From an uncultured Spirochaetota bacterium (GTDB lineage Bacteria > Spirochaetota > UBA4802 > UBA5550): DNA of 64,000 nt. Of this stretch, positions 8,694 to 20,455 are shown in pieces. Numbering within the stretch: position 1 is the first letter of the stretch; every line of letters begins with the position of its first letter. The notes under the pieces were generated by a model. That model did not search any database. It was not told where the DNA came from and was given only the letters and a program-made list of their open reading frames with translations. Both the position numbers and the translations under genes were made by a program. The stretch spans positions 4,701,381 to 4,765,380 of the forward strand of contig CAVSFD010000002.1 of assembly GCA_963727175.1 (NCBI GenBank). Direction: 5' to 3'.

Positions 8694-8923
8694 ACCGCCT
8701 CCCAGTCGCTCTCATAATATATCACAAGAGTTAATAGAATGTCAAGTTGGACAATCGTCCAACTATCATCAATAGGTAAGCAGGGCTAAATGTCAACAAT
8801 TAACAATATATTCTTCAAGGAATTATTAGAAAGCCAGGAAGAGGGTACTACCGGGGTCAGAGCAACCATCTTGTGCTGGTTATAGCACCTTTATATAGCA
8901 TGACCACCTGTTATACGTTTTAC

Positions 8924-9002
8924 TCTGACCCCAATGCAACCGGAACCCGGGGTCAGAGCAACATGCCATGAAACAACTGGCCCCCATGCGATTGGGGGCC
9001 AG
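8924..9002 (-). terminator. Two stem-loops downstream of the secreted hydrolase gene. One has a 10-bp perfect stem (CTCTGACCCC / GGGGTCAGAG). The other has an 8-bp stem (TGGCCCCC / GGGGGCCA).
   Basis: Inverted repeats read in sequence at 8924-8959 and 8979-9002. They lie just 3' of the stop codon at 9034 of the minus-strand gene. Confidence 0.4.
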
Positions 9003-9033: not shown

Positions 9034-10077
9034 TTACCGGGTCAGCTGGGTAACGGCCTTGACCGGCGTACCGTCGCTCCAATTACCCATATCAAAGGTA
9101 AGAGTATTTTGTCCGTCCAGGGCTGCATCAAGGGCGGGCCAGAAAACCCGGTAGTCGAAAGCATCCACCTCGCCGTCGCCGCCGAGCATATTCATCGCCC
9201 AGCTGGGCATCCAGCCATCGTCGCAGATGGGGGCCATGTGGTCGGCTTTAAGGTCCTTGTCGCCATGAGTATCGGTATTGTACTGGTAAATCACCTTTGA
9301 TGGAGCATTCACCAGGGCATCATAGGCCTCATAGGCGGTCTCCGGCAGGGCAATGGTATCATCTGATCCGGTCAGTATAATGACCGGGACCGTGGTTGCA
9401 CGGGCCTTGGCATTGAAATCGAGCTCTGTCACGTCAACAAAGGCGTCAACAAAGGCCGGAATATTGGCGTACAAACAGGGGTCAGCAAGAACGATCCTCT
9501 TAACTGCCGGAGCAATGGCGGCGCCTTCATTATCTGCCCAGCAGAGGCTGATAAGGCCCCCCAGGGAGTGACCGAAAAGCACCATGTTGCTTCGGTCGGC
9601 CTTTGATCCTATCTTATTCAGGGCATCATTCACCGAATCGATGGTCCGGTGCATCATGTTGTACTGATTGTTATCGGTAGCCAGGCCTACGAGGCCGCCC
9701 TTGTTTATCTGCGGGAACAGGACGATGTAGCCCTGCCTGCAGAGGTGCTCGATATGGTCCATGTAAATATCAGGCGCCATAAGCATCATGCCGTGAAGGT
9801 AGATGACAACCGGCGCTTTGGTCCCGTTCTTCAATTTATCGGGGATATAATACCAGCACCAGTAACCGCTCCAGGGATTGTACCAGGCGCCAACCCTGCC
9901 CTCGGTAAAGCCGTTGCATATGTATTTAGCGGATGAGCCATAACCGGATACTGCCTGACCCGGGGCAGTTATCCCGGCCGCCCCGGCCGAATTGAAATCA
10001 CAGTTCAAGGAGAAAATCAGCACCAGCAACGCGATCAATAACAATTTACCCTTCATTGACAAGACCTCCCATTGCAA
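9034..10077 (-). CDS. Secreted alpha/beta-hydrolase (lipase/esterase-like, GHSLGG nucleophile elbow)
   Basis: 347 aa with an N-terminal signal peptide (MKGKLLLIALLVLIFSLN), a GxSxG motif (GHSLGG) and a YLHGM oxyanion-region motif. Confidence 0.7.
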   Translation of the reverse strand: MQWEVLSMKGKLLLIALLVLIFSLNCDFNSAGAAGITAPGQAVSGYGSSAKYICNGFTEGRVGAWYNPWSGYWCWYYIPDKLKNGTKAPVVIYLHGMMLMAPDIYMDHIEHLCRQGYIVLFPQINKGGLVGLATDNNQYNMMHRTIDSVNDALNKIGSKADRSNMVLFGHSLGGLISLCWADNEGAAIAPAVKRIVLADPCLYANIPAFVDAFVDVTELDFNAKARATTVPVIILTGSDDTIALPETAYEAYDALVNAPSKVIYQYNTDTHGDKDLKADHMAPICDDGWMPSWAMNMLGGDGEVDAFDYRVFWPALDAALDGQNTLTFDMGNWSDGTPVKAVTQLTR

Positions 10078-10298
10078 TTTTTTAAGCCGATAACTATCAC
10101 TGCGCCTCCAACTCCAAAATCAGTCTTTATTTATATAAACGTCCAGCGACCGTCCAGTCGGTTTGATGTATACACTATATGCATATACAAAATCCAGATG
10201 CTACTCAATATTACAGATTCTGTAAATTTGACAGAATTCTCGCAGGAAATCTCTTTTTAAAGGGCCAAATCCCTTGAACAACGAGGTATTGCCTTTTA

Positions 10299-11867
10299 TT
10301 AGCGAATATCAAGTTTTAATTCAGCCCGGTACTCGGTAGGTGTTTTGCCGGTGCAGTTTTTAAAGGCCCTGTTGAATGTTGACAGGCTGTCAAAACCCGT
10401 GGCCAGGGCGGCATCAATGATCTTAACCTGCTTGTCCTTAAGGCGTTCCATCGCCTCATGTATCCTGAGCTCATTTATGTAATCATTGATTTTTTTTCCG
10501 GTGAATTCCTTGAACTGGCCGCTGAAATAGTTGGGGTTCATCCCTACCGCAGCGGCAAGGCCCTCGCGGGAAATATCAGACCGGTAATTCTCATTGATGA
10601 AGGCTATGATACTCTTCAATTTTTCCCCGGTTGAATCGGTTACGACCTTTCGCCTGGCATGGTCCGATTTCTGGCCGGGCACATGGAGCTGTTCATAGAG
10701 GACCTTCAGGCTGATCATCCTGCGCTGGTATTCACGCGATCCCAGCACCGCGAAGCCGAGGATAACGAAAGGCGAGAAATAGGTTACTATAAGGAAGGAG
10801 TACCTGCTCCCGGTGATATACAACAATACCTCGAGGATCCCGCCGACGGAGAGGAGCGACACCAGAACCAGGATCACCGCGCACTTGAACCTGTCGGGCC
10901 GAAGCCTGTTGATCCTCAGGGTCATGTACACGGCATAGGGGATGAAAGCGGTTATTATCACCAGGCCATAGAGAGGGTTCAGATAAAAATCGAGGACGAT
11001 GTAATTCAAAAGAAATATCACGCCGGACACAGCAAGTACCCCGCCGTTGATGATCCATGAATATTCAAACAAATCAACGCGGTACAGCGCCTGAATAATG
11101 AGAATGAACAGAATGCCGAAGAGCGGCATTGCCAGCATAAGCAGGGGCGGGATCATATCAAGGGCAACCATTTTGTAGGGGGAAAAAATGGTGATGATGT
11201 AGACCGCATTGAGGAGCTGCACCAGGATCTCGTACAGGAAGAGCCTGTCATATCCGTAAAAAATTGTCACTGCCGTCATGAGCAGGATGCTTCCCGCGAG
11301 GAGAAGGAGTATGCCGATGGGAAGCTGGTTGTAGATCAGGTCATAGAAGTTCTTCAGGCGGCGGTATTCCATCTTCGGCTGGATATAGACCCCGTCAGGG
11401 AGGCCGCCGTACTCATAGCTGTAAATGCCCAGGTACAGGTAAATTTCATTTTTTCCTTTTTTGAGGAGGCCCCGGGGCATCATAAAACTTTCCGGGTAAT
11501 GAAGATTGGATATCTCGGGCGGCGTTTTAACGTCGATCAGGTAATCATTGATGAATATTTCATACGTGTAATTGATTCTTCCCAGCGTAATGCCGTAATA
11601 CTTCTCCGGATTGTCTTTTATATCAAATTCACCCCTGAGCCAGCAATACCGGAAGGCCCGCTCCGCCTTATAGGGCAGCCGAAACTTCGATGGTATTTGT
11701 ATGGGGACCCATCCGGTCATTCCCCGAACAGCGTCGATTGACGGCTCCTGGCTGTACAGCACCATCCATTCCCGTACCTGGATGGATTCCGGAATAGCAG
11801 GAAAGCAAAATGATCGGGCCGGCAGTAAGATAAAAAAACACGCGGCGATGAGCAATGGCAACTTCAT
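10299..11867 (-). CDS. Membrane-bound AraC-family transcriptional regulator with 7TMR-DISM sensor (periplasmic domain + 7TM) N-terminal to the HTH
   Basis: 522 aa with a signal peptide, a periplasmic domain, about 7 TM helices and a C-terminal AraC HTH (DSLSTFNRAFKNCTGKTPTEYR). Confidence 0.75.
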   Translation of the reverse strand: MKLPLLIAACFFILLPARSFCFPAIPESIQVREWMVLYSQEPSIDAVRGMTGWVPIQIPSKFRLPYKAERAFRYCWLRGEFDIKDNPEKYYGITLGRINYTYEIFINDYLIDVKTPPEISNLHYPESFMMPRGLLKKGKNEIYLYLGIYSYEYGGLPDGVYIQPKMEYRRLKNFYDLIYNQLPIGILLLLAGSILLMTAVTIFYGYDRLFLYEILVQLLNAVYIITIFSPYKMVALDMIPPLLMLAMPLFGILFILIIQALYRVDLFEYSWIINGGVLAVSGVIFLLNYIVLDFYLNPLYGLVIITAFIPYAVYMTLRINRLRPDRFKCAVILVLVSLLSVGGILEVLLYITGSRYSFLIVTYFSPFVILGFAVLGSREYQRRMISLKVLYEQLHVPGQKSDHARRKVVTDSTGEKLKSIIAFINENYRSDISREGLAAAVGMNPNYFSGQFKEFTGKKINDYINELRIHEAMERLKDKQVKIIDAALATGFDSLSTFNRAFKNCTGKTPTEYRAELKLDIR

Positions 11868-16480: not shown

Positions 16481-17473
16481 TTAAACCTTCACGGCAGCTC
16501 TTCTTTTAACCGACCGCATCTTCCCATCATTACGAAGCGCAACTTTTTTCTTCATGGCGGGCTTCTTTCCCTTCATGAAAAACGCGTGGGCGTCACGGGC
16601 AGTCACGGCCGGCATCTCCTCCATCGGCATATGGCCGCAGTCATCATAGAGCACCAGCTCCGCGTGGGGAAGGTCCCGCTTCCAGTGATCAATCGTCTCC
16701 TTCCATCGCGACCAGATATCCTTCTTTCCCCATGCCATCATCACCGGCATCTGTAGCTTTTTGACATCGAGATAGATCGTGTCAGACCTGCTCATGTCGG
16801 CAATCACCTTGAAGATTTTCGACAGGGTGCGCCGGTTCCCCTCGCGCATGATGAGGTCCCAGTACATGTCATACACTGCCGGCGTAATTCTTTCCTTCCT
16901 GCCGTACAGGCGTTCGATGCTGGTCTTGATCAGCAGCCGCGGCAGCATCACGTTATTGATTACGGATTTTACTCCCGGTATCTGCGCCAGCTTGAATTCA
17001 TACGGAAGGGACTGGTTATAGGCTATCGGATCCAGCAGCAGAAGTTTTTCTATCATGTCCGGACGGTGTACGGCGTATTTCCATGCGTAGAAACCGCCCA
17101 GAGAATTCCCCGCGATAAAGCAGCGCTTGATCTTCAGCGCATCGAGGAAAGAATCGAGAAAGGCGTTCATGGCTTCGTCCATGTATTCCTCTTCCCTTGA
17201 AGGACCGGTGATGCCCCACCCGGGCAGGTCCAGACGGATGATGCGGTAGTGGTCTTTCAGCTCATTGTACCAGCCGTCCCAGGTATGCAGAAAGGCGACA
17301 ACGCCATGGAGCAGCACCAGCACGGGGCCCGTGCCCTGGTCCTTGTAATGCACATCCATGCCGTTTATCGTTATGAATTTTGAATCCTCATCGCAATACT
17401 TGCATTTCATCTTTTCTAACGGGTTTGAGCGAATGCCGGGATTAAAATTCTGGAGAAACATTTCTACTGACAT
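16481..17473 (-). CDS. Alpha/beta-fold hydrolase (GNSLGG) with a Lys-rich C-terminal tail
   Basis: 330 aa with an HG oxyanion-hole motif (VLLHGVVAFLHTW), nucleophile GNSLGG and the catalytic His region (DDCGHMP). Confidence 0.75.
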   Translation of the reverse strand: MSVEMFLQNFNPGIRSNPLEKMKCKYCDEDSKFITINGMDVHYKDQGTGPVLVLLHGVVAFLHTWDGWYNELKDHYRIIRLDLPGWGITGPSREEEYMDEAMNAFLDSFLDALKIKRCFIAGNSLGGFYAWKYAVHRPDMIEKLLLLDPIAYNQSLPYEFKLAQIPGVKSVINNVMLPRLLIKTSIERLYGRKERITPAVYDMYWDLIMREGNRRTLSKIFKVIADMSRSDTIYLDVKKLQMPVMMAWGKKDIWSRWKETIDHWKRDLPHAELVLYDDCGHMPMEEMPAVTARDAHAFFMKGKKPAMKKKVALRNDGKMRSVKRRAAVKV

Positions 17474-17754
17474 GATGGACCCCTGGGAATTAATTTACAA
17501 TCTTCATTAAATTAAAACGCTAACCGCATCGGTAAGTAATAAATCCGACCGTCTGTATGGATTAAAAATATCACATTGCAAGTCCTTTGTCTGGCCACAT
17601 ATCGTTATGCCAGAATCTGTCCCTGCATCATAAATTGGATGGCGGAATTGAATCAACATGCCATTGCGCCAAATCAAGATCGTGCTTGATTTGGCCAGAT
17701 GCGGGATTATTCAGAAGATTTTTCAGTTACAGGGTCAGAGTAACACCAGTTTTG

Positions 17755-17950
17755 CACCGATAACAATCGGCCTATAAGATCAAAAAGCATGGTGCCTGAG
17801 TAAATTCCCGTCTCTGTACCGATAACTATCGGTCACAAAATATAATAATTGGGCTGTCAAAGCAAACTCCTGCCTCTGTACCGATAACTATCAGCCTCAA
17901 AACCAAAAATCCGGGTGCCAGAGTAACACACCAAACAGATGGATAACTGA
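17755..17950. repeat. Three to four tandem ~62-bp repeats, each carrying the inverted repeat ACCGATAAC(A/T)ATCGG, immediately upstream of gltS
   Basis: The copies sit at 17757-17770, 17819-17832 and 17881-17894 with a period of exactly 62 bp. A partial fourth GATAAC lies at 17943. The inter-copy segments are diverged but alignable. Confidence 0.6.
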
Positions 17951-17996
17951 CAATTTATTCATTGACGCCGGCATTCTTCTTTGAACAATTTCCCGC

Positions 17997-19229
17997 ATGT
18001 TTACATTAGACATGATACAGACCGTGGCCTTTGCCGGGCTGGTGGTCTTCACCGGCTATGGCATAAGGAAGATCGTCCCGATCCTGGCCCGCTACAATCT
18101 GCCGGCGCCGGTGCTGGGAGGACTGGTCATCGCCCTGGTCAACCTCGCGGCCCGGGGCTTTGGAGGAAGCCCCTTTACCTTCGACACGTCCCTGCAGACG
18201 CCACTCATGACCGCATTTTTCACCTCCATCGGCCTCGGGAGCAGCCTGAAGCTCTTACGGACCGGTGGAGTCAAAATAGTCACCTTTTTGATCATCGCCA
18301 TACTTTTCACGATACTGCAGAACGCCATAGGGATAGCCGTAGCCGTGCCCCTGGGCCAGCACCCCCTTTTCGGTGTGTTCAACTCCTCGGTGACCCTGGT
18401 GGGAGGGCCCGCCACGGGACTAGCCTTCGCGCCTCTCTTCGAGAAGGCCGGCGTCCACGGCGCGTCGTCCCTGGCTGTCGCCTCTGCCATGACCGGAATC
18501 ATCTGCGGGGGCCTCATCGGCGCCCCTATCGGAACCTGGCTCATTGAGCGTTACCGCCTGCGCCACGGCACCGGCAACCCCATCCCCGGCCGCGTGCCTG
18601 CCCCGACGGAGATCGTGGAAGAACAACTCGCTGAAGAAATTGGGGAATCCCCCTCCGGGGAAGATCCATCGGCCTATATTCTGCTGAAAAACCTGGTGGC
18701 CATCCTCGCGGCCATGTGGATCGGTTACTGGATCAGCAGGGGCTTCTCCGCACTGGGGATGACACTGCCCGCCTATATCGGTGCCATGTTCGCCGGCGCC
18801 ATCATCAGCAACCTGGCTGATCTCACCGGCGTTATCACCCTGTCACAGAAATCGATCGACGATATCGGCACCGTGGCCCTCACCCTCTTCATCGCAATGG
18901 CTATGATGACCCTGAAGCTATGGGAACTGGCGGACGTGGCCCTCCCCATGCTGGCGGTCGTGGCGGCGCAGGTAATCGTGGTGGGGGCGGCCTGCTTCTG
19001 GCCCCTCTTCCGCCTCTTCGGCAGGGACTATGACGCTGCCGTCACCTGTGCCGGCTTCTGTGGCTTCATGCTGGGCACCACTGCCAACGCCATGGCAAGC
19101 ATGGAGTCCCTTGCCGAACGGTACGGCCCGGCGAAGCGCGCTTTCCTGGTGGTGCCGATCGTGGGGGCCTTCTTCATAGACTTCGCCAACGCCATCATCA
19201 TCACGGTGTTTTTGAACCTGTTCTCATAA
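17997..19229 (+). CDS. gltS: Sodium/glutamate symporter
   Basis: 410 aa and polytopic, with conserved GltS segments (LPAPVLGGLVIAL...GGPATGLAFAPLFEKAG). Confidence 0.85.
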   Translation: MFTLDMIQTVAFAGLVVFTGYGIRKIVPILARYNLPAPVLGGLVIALVNLAARGFGGSPFTFDTSLQTPLMTAFFTSIGLGSSLKLLRTGGVKIVTFLIIAILFTILQNAIGIAVAVPLGQHPLFGVFNSSVTLVGGPATGLAFAPLFEKAGVHGASSLAVASAMTGIICGGLIGAPIGTWLIERYRLRHGTGNPIPGRVPAPTEIVEEQLAEEIGESPSGEDPSAYILLKNLVAILAAMWIGYWISRGFSALGMTLPAYIGAMFAGAIISNLADLTGVITLSQKSIDDIGTVALTLFIAMAMMTLKLWELADVALPMLAVVAAQVIVVGAACFWPLFRLFGRDYDAAVTCAGFCGFMLGTTANAMASMESLAERYGPAKRAFLVVPIVGAFFIDFANAIIITVFLNLFS

Positions 19230-19450
19230 CATCGGCGGATGGCATAAAACACGGGCCTTGCACCATTATTGCGCCGGATGATGCGGCTACGGTCTGTTAT
19301 ATGATTCTGTATGGCCGCGATGGGCTTCTCTGAAATTTTCGGAGAACAAGGCGGCAGGTAATTTCCTTGACATCCAGCAGTGAATAAAATATTTTTTTGC
19401 AATTACATTGCAACAGACTGCATATTCAACGGCATGCGGGGTGAGATAAT

Positions 19451-20002
19451 TTGAAGAAATATATTATTTTCTCTCTTATAACTGTTATATTCTTATCCGG
19501 CTGTACTTATTTTAGAATAAAAAACAAAAAAAATCCGGCCGTTGATTTAAACAGGTATAACAAAATATACCTCGGGTGGATGGATCTTGGTGAAGAAAAA
19601 TGGGCAGCATATCATTATTCAAATGAAAAAGAATGGCTTGACCTGATCAACCGCGCAAATCGATCGGCAATGCCTTCATATTTCAAAGAAGTTTTTGAGG
19701 ACAAATTTATTATTGCAGCAAAAAAACCGGGTGAACCCCTTCCCAAGGACGGCTTAATCATAAAATTTCAAAACGCGAATTACATATATGCGGATGATGA
19801 ATTGTACGTGGTGATAAATCTGACAGATGGCGCAACCTCTCAAAACCTGGCAATGACATCGGTGTATATAAAAGCCTGGCGGGGAGGCGGATGGAGCGTA
19901 TGGACTTTTGAAGACCGGGTAATGAATTCCATCCGAAATCTTGCTTATTTCGTAAAAGAAATAATCTTCAGGATCAACAGCATTAATAACAGACCCTGGT
20001 GA
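19451..20002 (+). CDS. Lipoprotein of unknown function, encoded in a local AT-rich patch (~34% GC)
   Basis: 183 aa with signal peptide and lipobox (IFLSGC). No catalytic motifs. Base composition differs strongly from the flanking genes. Confidence 0.5.
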   Translation: MKKYIIFSLITVIFLSGCTYFRIKNKKNPAVDLNRYNKIYLGWMDLGEEKWAAYHYSNEKEWLDLINRANRSAMPSYFKEVFEDKFIIAAKKPGEPLPKDGLIIKFQNANYIYADDELYVVINLTDGATSQNLAMTSVYIKAWRGGGWSVWTFEDRVMNSIRNLAYFVKEIIFRINSINNRPW

Positions 20003-20010
20003 AAAACCGT

Positions 20011-20406
20011 TCAGCTTTTGATCTTAACCAGGGTCGAAGTCACCAGGAGCGCCGAATCCTCCAGTGCGGCTTCGCGGTCCCCGTGAATTTTCATGTAATC
20101 CGGCCTCGAGATCATGGTAAGGAATGCTTTTCGGGAAGGATATTCGACAAGCAGGACCTCGTCCCACCGGTCCTTATCCGCGCCTATGAAGACCTGCCCC
20201 ACGGAGCCGTACCAGAGTACCCGCGCACCTATCTCGGCGAGGAATGGTATGGCGGCCCGGCCGTAGCGCTCATAGGCCGTTCTGCCCGGCTCTCCCGTCT
20301 CAGTCTTTTCCCTGAACTTCAATAAATTTACCATAACGACCGGACCTTCATCAACGCCGGTCATGAGTTCTTTGATCTGGCCCTGTGTCGGCTGTATTGA
20401 TCCCAT
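20011..20406 (-). CDS. DUF1330-family protein
   Basis: Core sequence is VVMVNLLKFRE...AIPFLAEIGARVLWYG...VLLVEYPSRKAFLTMISRPDY. I chose the MGSIQ start over the longer ORF, which would overlap queG. Confidence 0.55.
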   Translation of the reverse strand: MGSIQPTQGQIKELMTGVDEGPVVMVNLLKFREKTETGEPGRTAYERYGRAAIPFLAEIGARVLWYGSVGQVFIGADKDRWDEVLLVEYPSRKAFLTMISRPDYMKIHGDREAALEDSALLVTSTLVKIKS

Positions 20407-20455
20407 CAGTGCTTCTCCTTTTTTAGTAATTGCGGGCGCGGCCGCGAAACCGCGC

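Follow-up and report, generated by a model that had tools for sequence, protein, structure and literature searches.

The repeat array upstream of gltS in an uncultured spirochaete is very probably one locus of a dispersed family of short mosaic repeats

The window analysed here is a 64,000-nucleotide stretch of the genome of an uncultured Spirochaetota bacterium (assembly GCA_963727175.1, contig CAVSFD010000002.1, positions 4,701,381 to 4,765,380). Within it, a tandem array of short, partly palindromic repeats is located between gltS, which encodes a sodium/glutamate symporter of 410 amino acids (17997..19229, plus strand; Pfam PF03616 Glt_symporter, E = 3.6e-102), and a divergently transcribed alpha/beta hydrolase gene (16481..17473, minus strand; Pfam Abhydrolase_1, E = 2.1e-24). 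An earlier note on this DNA had read the repeats as an operator or DNA-looping array for a dimeric regulator of gltS, one that would define a regulon. The array is very probably a member of a dispersed repeat family and not a gltS-specific operator. We further consider it probable that the array is one locus of a mosaic repeat family resembling the bacterial interspersed mosaic elements (BIMEs) and the mycobacterial interspersed repetitive units (MIRUs), that the repeat core is recognised by a protein, and that any effect on gltS is incidental.

One genome per species, 185,579 species in all, was scanned for two cores 34-64 bp apart (CCGATAACWATC-N22-52-CCGATAACWATC). The two-core scan returned at least 114 loci, where by our own estimate about 0.5 would be expected by chance in unrelated sequence. 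Among the listed loci, 75 were found in 16 Spirochaetota metagenome-assembled genomes labelled 'Leptospirales', with at least 15 loci in assembly CAWHAA01, at least 13 in JAFGJX01, at least 7 in CAZZHU01 and at least 6 in JBGSUQ01; about 34 were from Bacteroidota, isolates included. Together the listed loci hold 118 arrays of 2-10 cores in a single orientation, up to 2 mismatches being allowed. Spacers are near-identical inside most arrays and unrelated from array to array, and between loci only the core and a second motif, designated block A, are common. A scan of viral contigs for arrays gave 0 matches.

In the window itself, 9 matches to the 15-mer (up to 3 mismatches) were found where 2.96 were expected, a number reached in 0 of 100 shuffles, and the 14-mer (up to 2 mismatches) gave 8 matches for 1.19 expected. 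The core count is not due to chance. Block A likewise matched 5 times, compared with an expectation of 0.33. When an nhmmer profile of the whole 62-bp unit was run against the window, only the four local units matched (E = 1e-11 to 8e-9) and all other hits had E > 0.2; the whole unit is local, and the dispersed parts are its two motifs only.

The family is scattered, lies between genes and shows no preference for promoters. Of the 118 listed arrays, 98 were intergenic, and where both flanking genes were resolved these were divergent in 27 cases, convergent in 17 and co-directional in 34. In the spirochaetes the neighbour of an array was a gene start in 63 cases (median distance 165 bp) and a gene stop in 53 (41 bp), and several arrays begin directly at a stop codon. 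In co-directional contexts the cores showed no orientation bias relative to gene direction (about 15 the same and about 10 opposite, by our tally). Pfam scans assigned 71 families to 56 start-side neighbours, ranging over FliK, RecA, KARI, ceramidase and TetR, and 96 families to 48 stop-side neighbours, and revealed no functional theme on either side. No transposase, Cas, Par or Rep family was present among the 25 Pfam families with the most members in these neighbours. An all-against-all BLAST of 514 open reading frames (ORFs) from 75 spirochaete loci identified no array-linked family: the clusters seen were orthologous loci, and the largest cluster of neighbouring proteins covered 7 of about 75 loci.

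Upstream of gltS, reading of positions 17400-18300 located three cores, ACCGATAAC(T/A)ATC(G/A)G, beginning at 17756, 17818 and 17880 with start-to-start spacings of 62 and 62 bp, and a repeat search returned the same three 21-nt copies at the same spacings. The array is not an assembly artefact, because an identical array with identical spacing is present in an independent assembly (L001). In an alignment of four units of about 62 bp (A1; units from 17730, 17791, 17853 and 17915), mean column identity was 67%, with the core as the conserved block. The units share a second conserved block, GGGTCAGAGTAAC-like, which is the block A that was absent from the earlier note. Tandem Repeats Finder, run on 17000-18600, missed the array, whose units have diverged too far from one another.

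All elements of the array lie on the plus strand. The first unit, U0, opens with a block A copy, GGGTCAGAGTAAC (17732..17744), that matches GGGTCAGAGYAA exactly, and continues to core P1, ACCGATAACAATCGGC (17756..17771), which has A for T at its centre and keeps 5 of 7 arm pairs. Unit U1 has a degenerate block A, GGTGCCTGAGTAAA (17791..17804), and core P2, ACCGATAACTATCGGT (17818..17833), which matches the family consensus and is the only perfect 7-2-7 palindrome of the array. Unit U2 has a degenerate block A, GGGCTGTCAAAGCAAAC (17851..17867; both degenerate copies were placed by alignment A1), and core P3, ACCGATAACTATCAGC (17880..17895), whose right arm is broken by a G-to-A change and which also keeps 5 of 7 pairs. 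Unit U3 carries a block A-like copy, GGGTGCCAGAGTAAC (17913..17927), followed by a decayed fourth core, atGGATAACTgaCaat / ATGGATAACTGACAAT (17939..17954), that abuts the gltS -35 region. The GATAAC of this fourth core is 59 bp past that of P3, not 62. The earlier description of three full copies and a partial one at exactly 62 bp is thus correct for the three and wrong for the last, and the 7-2-7 palindrome that it placed in every unit is intact in the middle core alone.

The spirochaete core consensus is T-A-CCGATAAC-(T>A)-ATC-G-G. Its position matrix shows almost no variation in the A at -1 or across positions 1-12, and weaker conservation of G13 and G14. Since positions 1-12 were set by the scan pattern for two cores in each array, the unbiased observations are those on cores outside arrays and on positions 13-14. 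Among 51 single cores outside arrays, C1 was kept in 48 and C2 in 46, versus 36 for G13 and 35 for G14; among 231 array cores, C1 and C2 were found in 228 and 229, with G at position 13 in 197 and at position 14 in 170. Changes at G13 and G14 occur without compensation in the partner arm, in arrays and single cores alike. Because right-arm changes are not compensated in the left arm, the sequence of the core, rather than its pairing, is what is kept, and the core is directional.

Block A, (G)GGGTCAGAG(T/C)AA, also written GGGGTCAGAG(T/C)AA, is found 7-9 nt before a core or 9-11 nt after one, in either relative orientation, and flanks cores in 52 of the 118 listed arrays. These fixed distances on either side of the core define a composite unit of 43 bp; in L099 and L104 the arrangement is block A, core and inverted block A. 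Of 92 block A copies, 21 had no nearby core. In the window, a second family locus (8854..8961), downstream of a hydrolase gene at 9034-10077, consists of three block A copies, at 8854 (plus), 8920 (minus) and 8950 (plus). Since this cluster has no core palindrome, block A disperses on its own too. The cluster lies between two genes and is followed by a terminator-like hairpin, ctggcccccatgcgattgggggccag (about 8977-9002). A single degenerate core with 2 mismatches, CCGATAACTATCAC (10087..10100, plus strand), is intergenic and upstream of the same hydrolase gene.

Other arrangements of the core were seen in relatives. In L011 (1253-1390; 62-bp period), cores alternate with GATAGTTATCCACAA and GATAGTTATCTACAAA, which contain the DnaA-box consensus, once perfectly (TTATCCACA) and once with one mismatch, and the left part of these sequences, GATAGTTATC, is the reverse complement of the core centre. 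In two Bacteroidota genomes (L096 3696-3793 and L098 2-71), the left 12-14 nt of the core (CCGATAACTATC or CCGATAACTATCTC) are repeated head to tail 5-8 times, and the runs of half-sites close with one full palindrome. This half-site repetition looks like slippage.

The contigs that encode GltS homologues of 88-95% identity were located, and five orthologue loci (L002, L003, L004, L006 and L007) were compared. The sole orthologous locus with the motif was L004/L005 (GltS 90% identical, the hydrolase-gltS synteny being the same as in the window). In L004, from assembly JBGSUQ01, three perfect ACCGATAACTATCGG cores follow one another at 35 and 40 bp, and a fourth, CCCGATAGCGGATAAT, is decayed as in the window and lies in the same place; the U3 block A-like copy is kept there as GAGTCAGAGCAAC. 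Pairwise alignment of L004 with the window showed conserved flanks and 79% identity overall, with an array interior that differs by indels of whole modules. The earlier observation that the palindromes are kept and the DNA between them has diverged was borne out in the window, and it extends to L004, where the three cores are perfect in intergenic DNA about 79% identical. No core was found upstream of gltS in L002/L003 (95%), L006 (91%) or L007 (88%), where the upstream genes are different and the intergenic regions measure about 80-180 bp. Assembly CAZZHU01, which contains the array-free locus L006, has at least 7 arrays elsewhere.

A promoter scan placed the gltS core promoter at 17962..17989 on the plus strand (-35 TTGACG, 16-nt spacer, -10 AACAAT). 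The block ATTCATTGAC(G/T)CCG...AATT(T/C)CCCGCATG, which corresponds to this predicted -35/-10 pair, was kept in all five orthologous loci, with or without an array. The gltS promoter is independent of the repeats, because the same promoter block is kept in orthologues that have no array. The gltS mRNA is probably leaderless in this lineage, because the -10 element ends 7 nt 5' of the ATG (17997) and no Shine-Dalgarno sequence is present.

Array architecture turns over fast between species, and the core is held to one consensus. In five genomes an array lies upstream of the same 143-amino-acid gene; the cores are kept, and their number (2-4), their spacing and the spacers differ. In L062 and L052 the flanks are common up to the stop codon and the arrays are rebuilt, one with five direct units of core plus block A and the other with mixed orientations. 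By our own reckoning, flanks about 20% diverged mean that a neutral 14-mer would be identical only about 4% of the time. The family-wide core consensus therefore points to selection, or to a homogenising process acting through the core.

Core spacings in the spirochaetes peak at 21-22, 41-43 (about 40 of 88), 52-53 and 62-64 bp, with none at 47-50 bp; L081 685-852 is an example of the 21-22-bp period. After the 41-44 bp class was removed, 25 of 46 spacings were within 0.15 turn of a multiple of 10.5 bp, versus 26% expected (p = 4e-5), and the 62-bp spacing of the window falls in the six-turn class. The same-face placement proposed for the gltS array is thus a property of the whole spirochaete family. 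Arrays in Bacteroidota gave no phasing signal (7 of 35). The spacing itself appears to be constrained, because four arrays (L027 3259-3400, L037 3290-3430, L101 5707-5803 and L116 2039-2137) keep a 42-43-bp period despite mutually dissimilar spacers.

We propose that two motifs, P (T-A-CCGATAAC-(T/A)-ATCGG, directional and partly palindromic) and A (GGGGTCAGAG(T/C)AA), are joined at fixed distances and would be amplified head to tail along with variable pieces of local DNA. P would be the recognition site of a putative trans-acting, sequence-specific protein that reads double-stranded DNA, because its sequence and not its pairing is kept, its left arm is tighter than its right, and its copies lie on one helical face. 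Such recognition, whether through architectural binding, element-encoded mobilisation or gene conversion, would keep the cores uniform. We see it as about an even chance that recognition of double-stranded DNA by a protein is the force conserving the core. At gltS, the array upstream of the -35 box and between divergent promoters would at most modulate those promoters, and it is very probably no dedicated gltS operator.

Several observations weigh against this proposal. No binding protein or mobilising enzyme was identified. Arrays are long persistent at the same loci across species, so that a local function is possible, and arrays of related genomes are partly orthologous, so that the spacing p-values overstate independence. 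Conservation of the core within arrays was partly built in by the scan pattern, and gene context came from simple ORF calling, which is crude. The window array is an atypical, older-looking member of the family, with 13-15 nt from block A to the next core compared with the canonical 8. Dispersal in the source organism was seen, within the 64-kb window, as the block A cluster and one degenerate core, and the remainder comes from relatives.

A different account of the same arrays would make them clusters of repetitive extragenic palindromic (REP) elements, the core being recognised as a single-stranded DNA hairpin and mobilised by a domesticated Y1 (HUH) transposase of the REP-associated tyrosine transposase (RAYT) type, and the units being reiterated with flanking DNA. 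This is possible, though we consider it unlikely. Like REP elements and the BIMEs of Enterobacteria and Pseudomonas, which are RAYT-associated, the family consists of short intergenic palindromes present in many copies, at many loci per genome in the relatives and at 2-3 loci in the window; its arrays often lie just past stop codons, and it forms a mosaic with a second motif at fixed distances. Its tandem reiteration with flanks recalls large REP clusters, in which units are reiterated together with flanking DNA (PMC3733652). One end of a REP element, however, is marked by a conserved tetranucleotide, GTAG or CGTC (Di Nocera et al. 2013, PMC3733652), and neither tag is present on either side of this core, whose conserved flank is TA on the 5' side. 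The core is only 14-16 bp long, with a stem of just 5-7 bp at -4 to -5 kcal/mol as DNA; the hairpins of P1, P2 and P3 gave -4.4, -5.1 and 0 kcal/mol, and P3 had no predicted fold as single-stranded DNA. Its outer pairs are often broken and uncompensated, so that arm pairing is not maintained, and its left arm is the tighter one. Copies run head to tail and do not alternate, the same 14-mer recurs in a second phylum, and helical phasing would have no role in a hairpin mechanism. Neither a transposase nor a RAYT was found among the neighbouring proteins, in a partial look that took in the neighbours' top Pfam families. BIMEs also bind architectural proteins (IHF, gyrase).

Alternatively, a global transcription factor or nucleoid-associated protein might bind the core and truly regulate gltS, the divergent hydrolase gene or both through cooperative phased binding. 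Spacings near multiples of 10.5 bp, one core consensus amid drifting spacers, arrays that persist in one place from species to species, and the position of this array between divergent promoters, with its last, decayed core touching the -35 region, would all fit. This reading nevertheless seems quite improbable, given the 17 convergent arrays, the similar frequency with which gene stops and gene starts are adjoined, the flanking genes without functional coherence, the four gltS orthologue loci that have the same promoter and no array, and the lack of conservation of site number, spacing and orientation at orthologous loci. Cooperative operator arrays do resemble the family, in that they too place several phased and partly palindromic sites upstream of a promoter; the family differs in that its arrays are not biased towards promoters, define no coherent regulon, are not conserved at orthologous promoters and have no regulator next to them.

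The operator or looping array for a dimeric gltS regulator proposed in the earlier note had in its favour the position upstream of gltS, the exact 62-bp spacing and the conserved core. It is now highly improbable. The same core occurs at the 114 or more loci returned by the scan, which are unrelated to one another and number at least 15 in one genome; the arrays lie between genes of every relative orientation, nearly as often at stops as at starts, and their neighbours have no common theme. A dispersed family and a lack of bias to promoters are the very outcomes that the note itself had named as counting against its reading. Four of five gltS orthologue loci have no array and the fifth is spaced 35 and 40 bp. 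The half-sites are unequally constrained, which is a poor fit to a symmetric homodimer. The note was right that no cognate regulator gene adjoins the array: by the Pfam content of the window genes, the flanks are the hydrolase and an acetyl-CoA hydrolase/GNAT protein, and the nearest helix-turn-helix gene, of the AraC family (10299-11867), is 6 kb off.

Least probable of all is action at the RNA level, as hairpin repeats in untranslated regions that affect mRNA stability, termination or an RNA-binding protein: many arrays begin within a few nt of a stop codon and would be transcribed as 3' untranslated region, but the gltS array is 5' of a conserved promoter whose mRNA is probably leaderless, core orientation is unbiased, broken pairs are uncompensated, the array folded as RNA no better than shuffled sequence (z = -0.43), and Rfam at gathering thresholds gave zero matches in the whole window.

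Other known systems share individual features with the family. MIRU-type variable-number tandem repeats of mycobacteria are similar in their head-to-tail units of about 40-100 bp, their many intergenic loci, the variation of number and content between related genomes, and arrays that often occupy the space from one gene to the next. In MIRUs the homology between units extends from end to end, whereas here the loci have only the 14-16-bp core and block A in common, and the remainder of the unit is local sequence. In the sopC region of the F plasmid a 43-bp repeat that contains a 7-bp inverted repeat occurs 12 times in tandem, and iterons and sopC are matched by the direct arrays of a 16-bp 7-2-7 inverted repeat on one helix face, with 42-43 bp the commonest spacing and 21-22 bp found too. 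The family differs from these in having at least 15 chromosomal loci in one genome, where iterons and sopC have one or a few per replicon, next to rep or par genes, in its highly variable architecture, and in the absence of rep or par genes from the top 25 neighbour Pfam families by member count. CRISPR arrays are also regularly spaced, partly palindromic direct repeats, and the dissimilar spacers of constant length in L027, L037, L101 and L116 are reminiscent of them. The family repeat, however, is 14-16 bp (CRISPR repeats are 23-50 bp) in 2-10 copies, its spacers are mostly tandem local DNA, it has many loci per genome, and Cas families are absent from the same 25 neighbour families; CRISPR loci have unique spacers, a leader and cas genes.

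Sigma-54 promoters, NtrC sites (upstream activating sequences), Fur sites, DnaA boxes, LexA sites, cre/CcpA sites and parS were rejected on sequence grounds alone, as misfits to both motif and distribution. Serine-recombinase crossover sites and Tn3- or Tn7-type transposon ends were rejected on the same grounds. A literature search for the core found no paper with CGATAACTATCG in the library searched, and keyword searches gave general REP papers only.

The same 14-mer occurs in Bacteroidota with other flanks, (T/C)C-core-G(A/G). In 9 of 20 tested Bacteroidota loci, an intact tRNA gene has tandem units immediately on its 5' side; general linkage to tRNA genes was rejected for the spirochaetes, where a tRNA gene was near an array in 2 of 60 loci. 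The nine genomes, two of them isolates (L047 and L088), carry 2-4 tRNA-linked tandem units each; isolates with a tRNA-linked array include Bacteroidales bacterium 6E and Cyclobacteriaceae bacterium YHN15. The tRNA genes so placed are those for Met, Ala, Leu, Val, Thr, Met, Val, Leu and Leu, which makes three for Leu, two for Val and two for Met. The unit stretches are L010 3352-3580, L047 7724-7900, L031 7606-7904, L051 20-292, L088 4589-4739, L097 3-170, L020 2653-2854, L094 1634-1813 and L028 18-183. Most units consist of the tRNA leader, tRNA nt 1 to about 13, the palindrome CCGATAACTATCGG in place of the D-loop, and the 3' half of the D-arm (to nt about 27), and the last copy is the entire tRNA, in which the palindrome is absent. 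In L094, L097 and L028 the unit furthest from the tRNA has no tRNA-derived left flank. We know of no description of such an arrangement of tRNA 5' fragments and palindrome.

Block A, GGGTCAGAGCAA, resembles the 3' half of a tRNA D-arm, which reads GGTTCAGAGCA in tRNA-Val of L051; this likeness is suggestive only. One speculative and rather unlikely interpretation is that the 14-bp palindrome marks where an undescribed system for DNA insertion or duplication, common to Bacteroidota and the Spirochaetota clade, has acted, that the spirochaete form escaped its tRNA context and became a dispersed, phased mosaic repeat, and that GGGGTCAGAGCAA could be a remnant of the D-arm 3' half. If true, the family would be a bacterial counterpart of the tRNA-derived interspersed elements, with a protein partner.

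Short-read assemblies can break at the arrays because of their length or variability, so that array copy numbers in metagenome-assembled genomes are lower bounds. Within the core arrays at L119 3727-3842 and L025 1930-2058, scaffold gaps appear as runs of N. On the other side of gltS, relatives have, 3' of the gene, a glyoxalase gene, a class-III aminotransferase gene and a DUF819 gene, followed by a QueG-like gene. The window instead has, at 19230-20450, a low-GC stretch (0.33-0.44) with an ORF without a Pfam match (19451/19580-20002) and a weak DUF1330 ORF, as if DNA had been replaced or inserted here in this genome only.

For annotation of this genome, these results remove a false lead: the repeats are no pointer to a glutamate-transport regulator or its regulon. 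They define a previously undescribed family of short interspersed mosaic repeats, which is unusual in its directional, sequence-constrained core, in its helical phase, and in the presence of the same 14-mer in two phyla, with tandem tRNA 5' fragments in the Bacteroidota. The hypervariable arrays could serve as strain-typing loci for these uncultured lineages. If a protein partner of the core is found, it would represent a new architectural DNA-binding system or a new mobilisation machinery.

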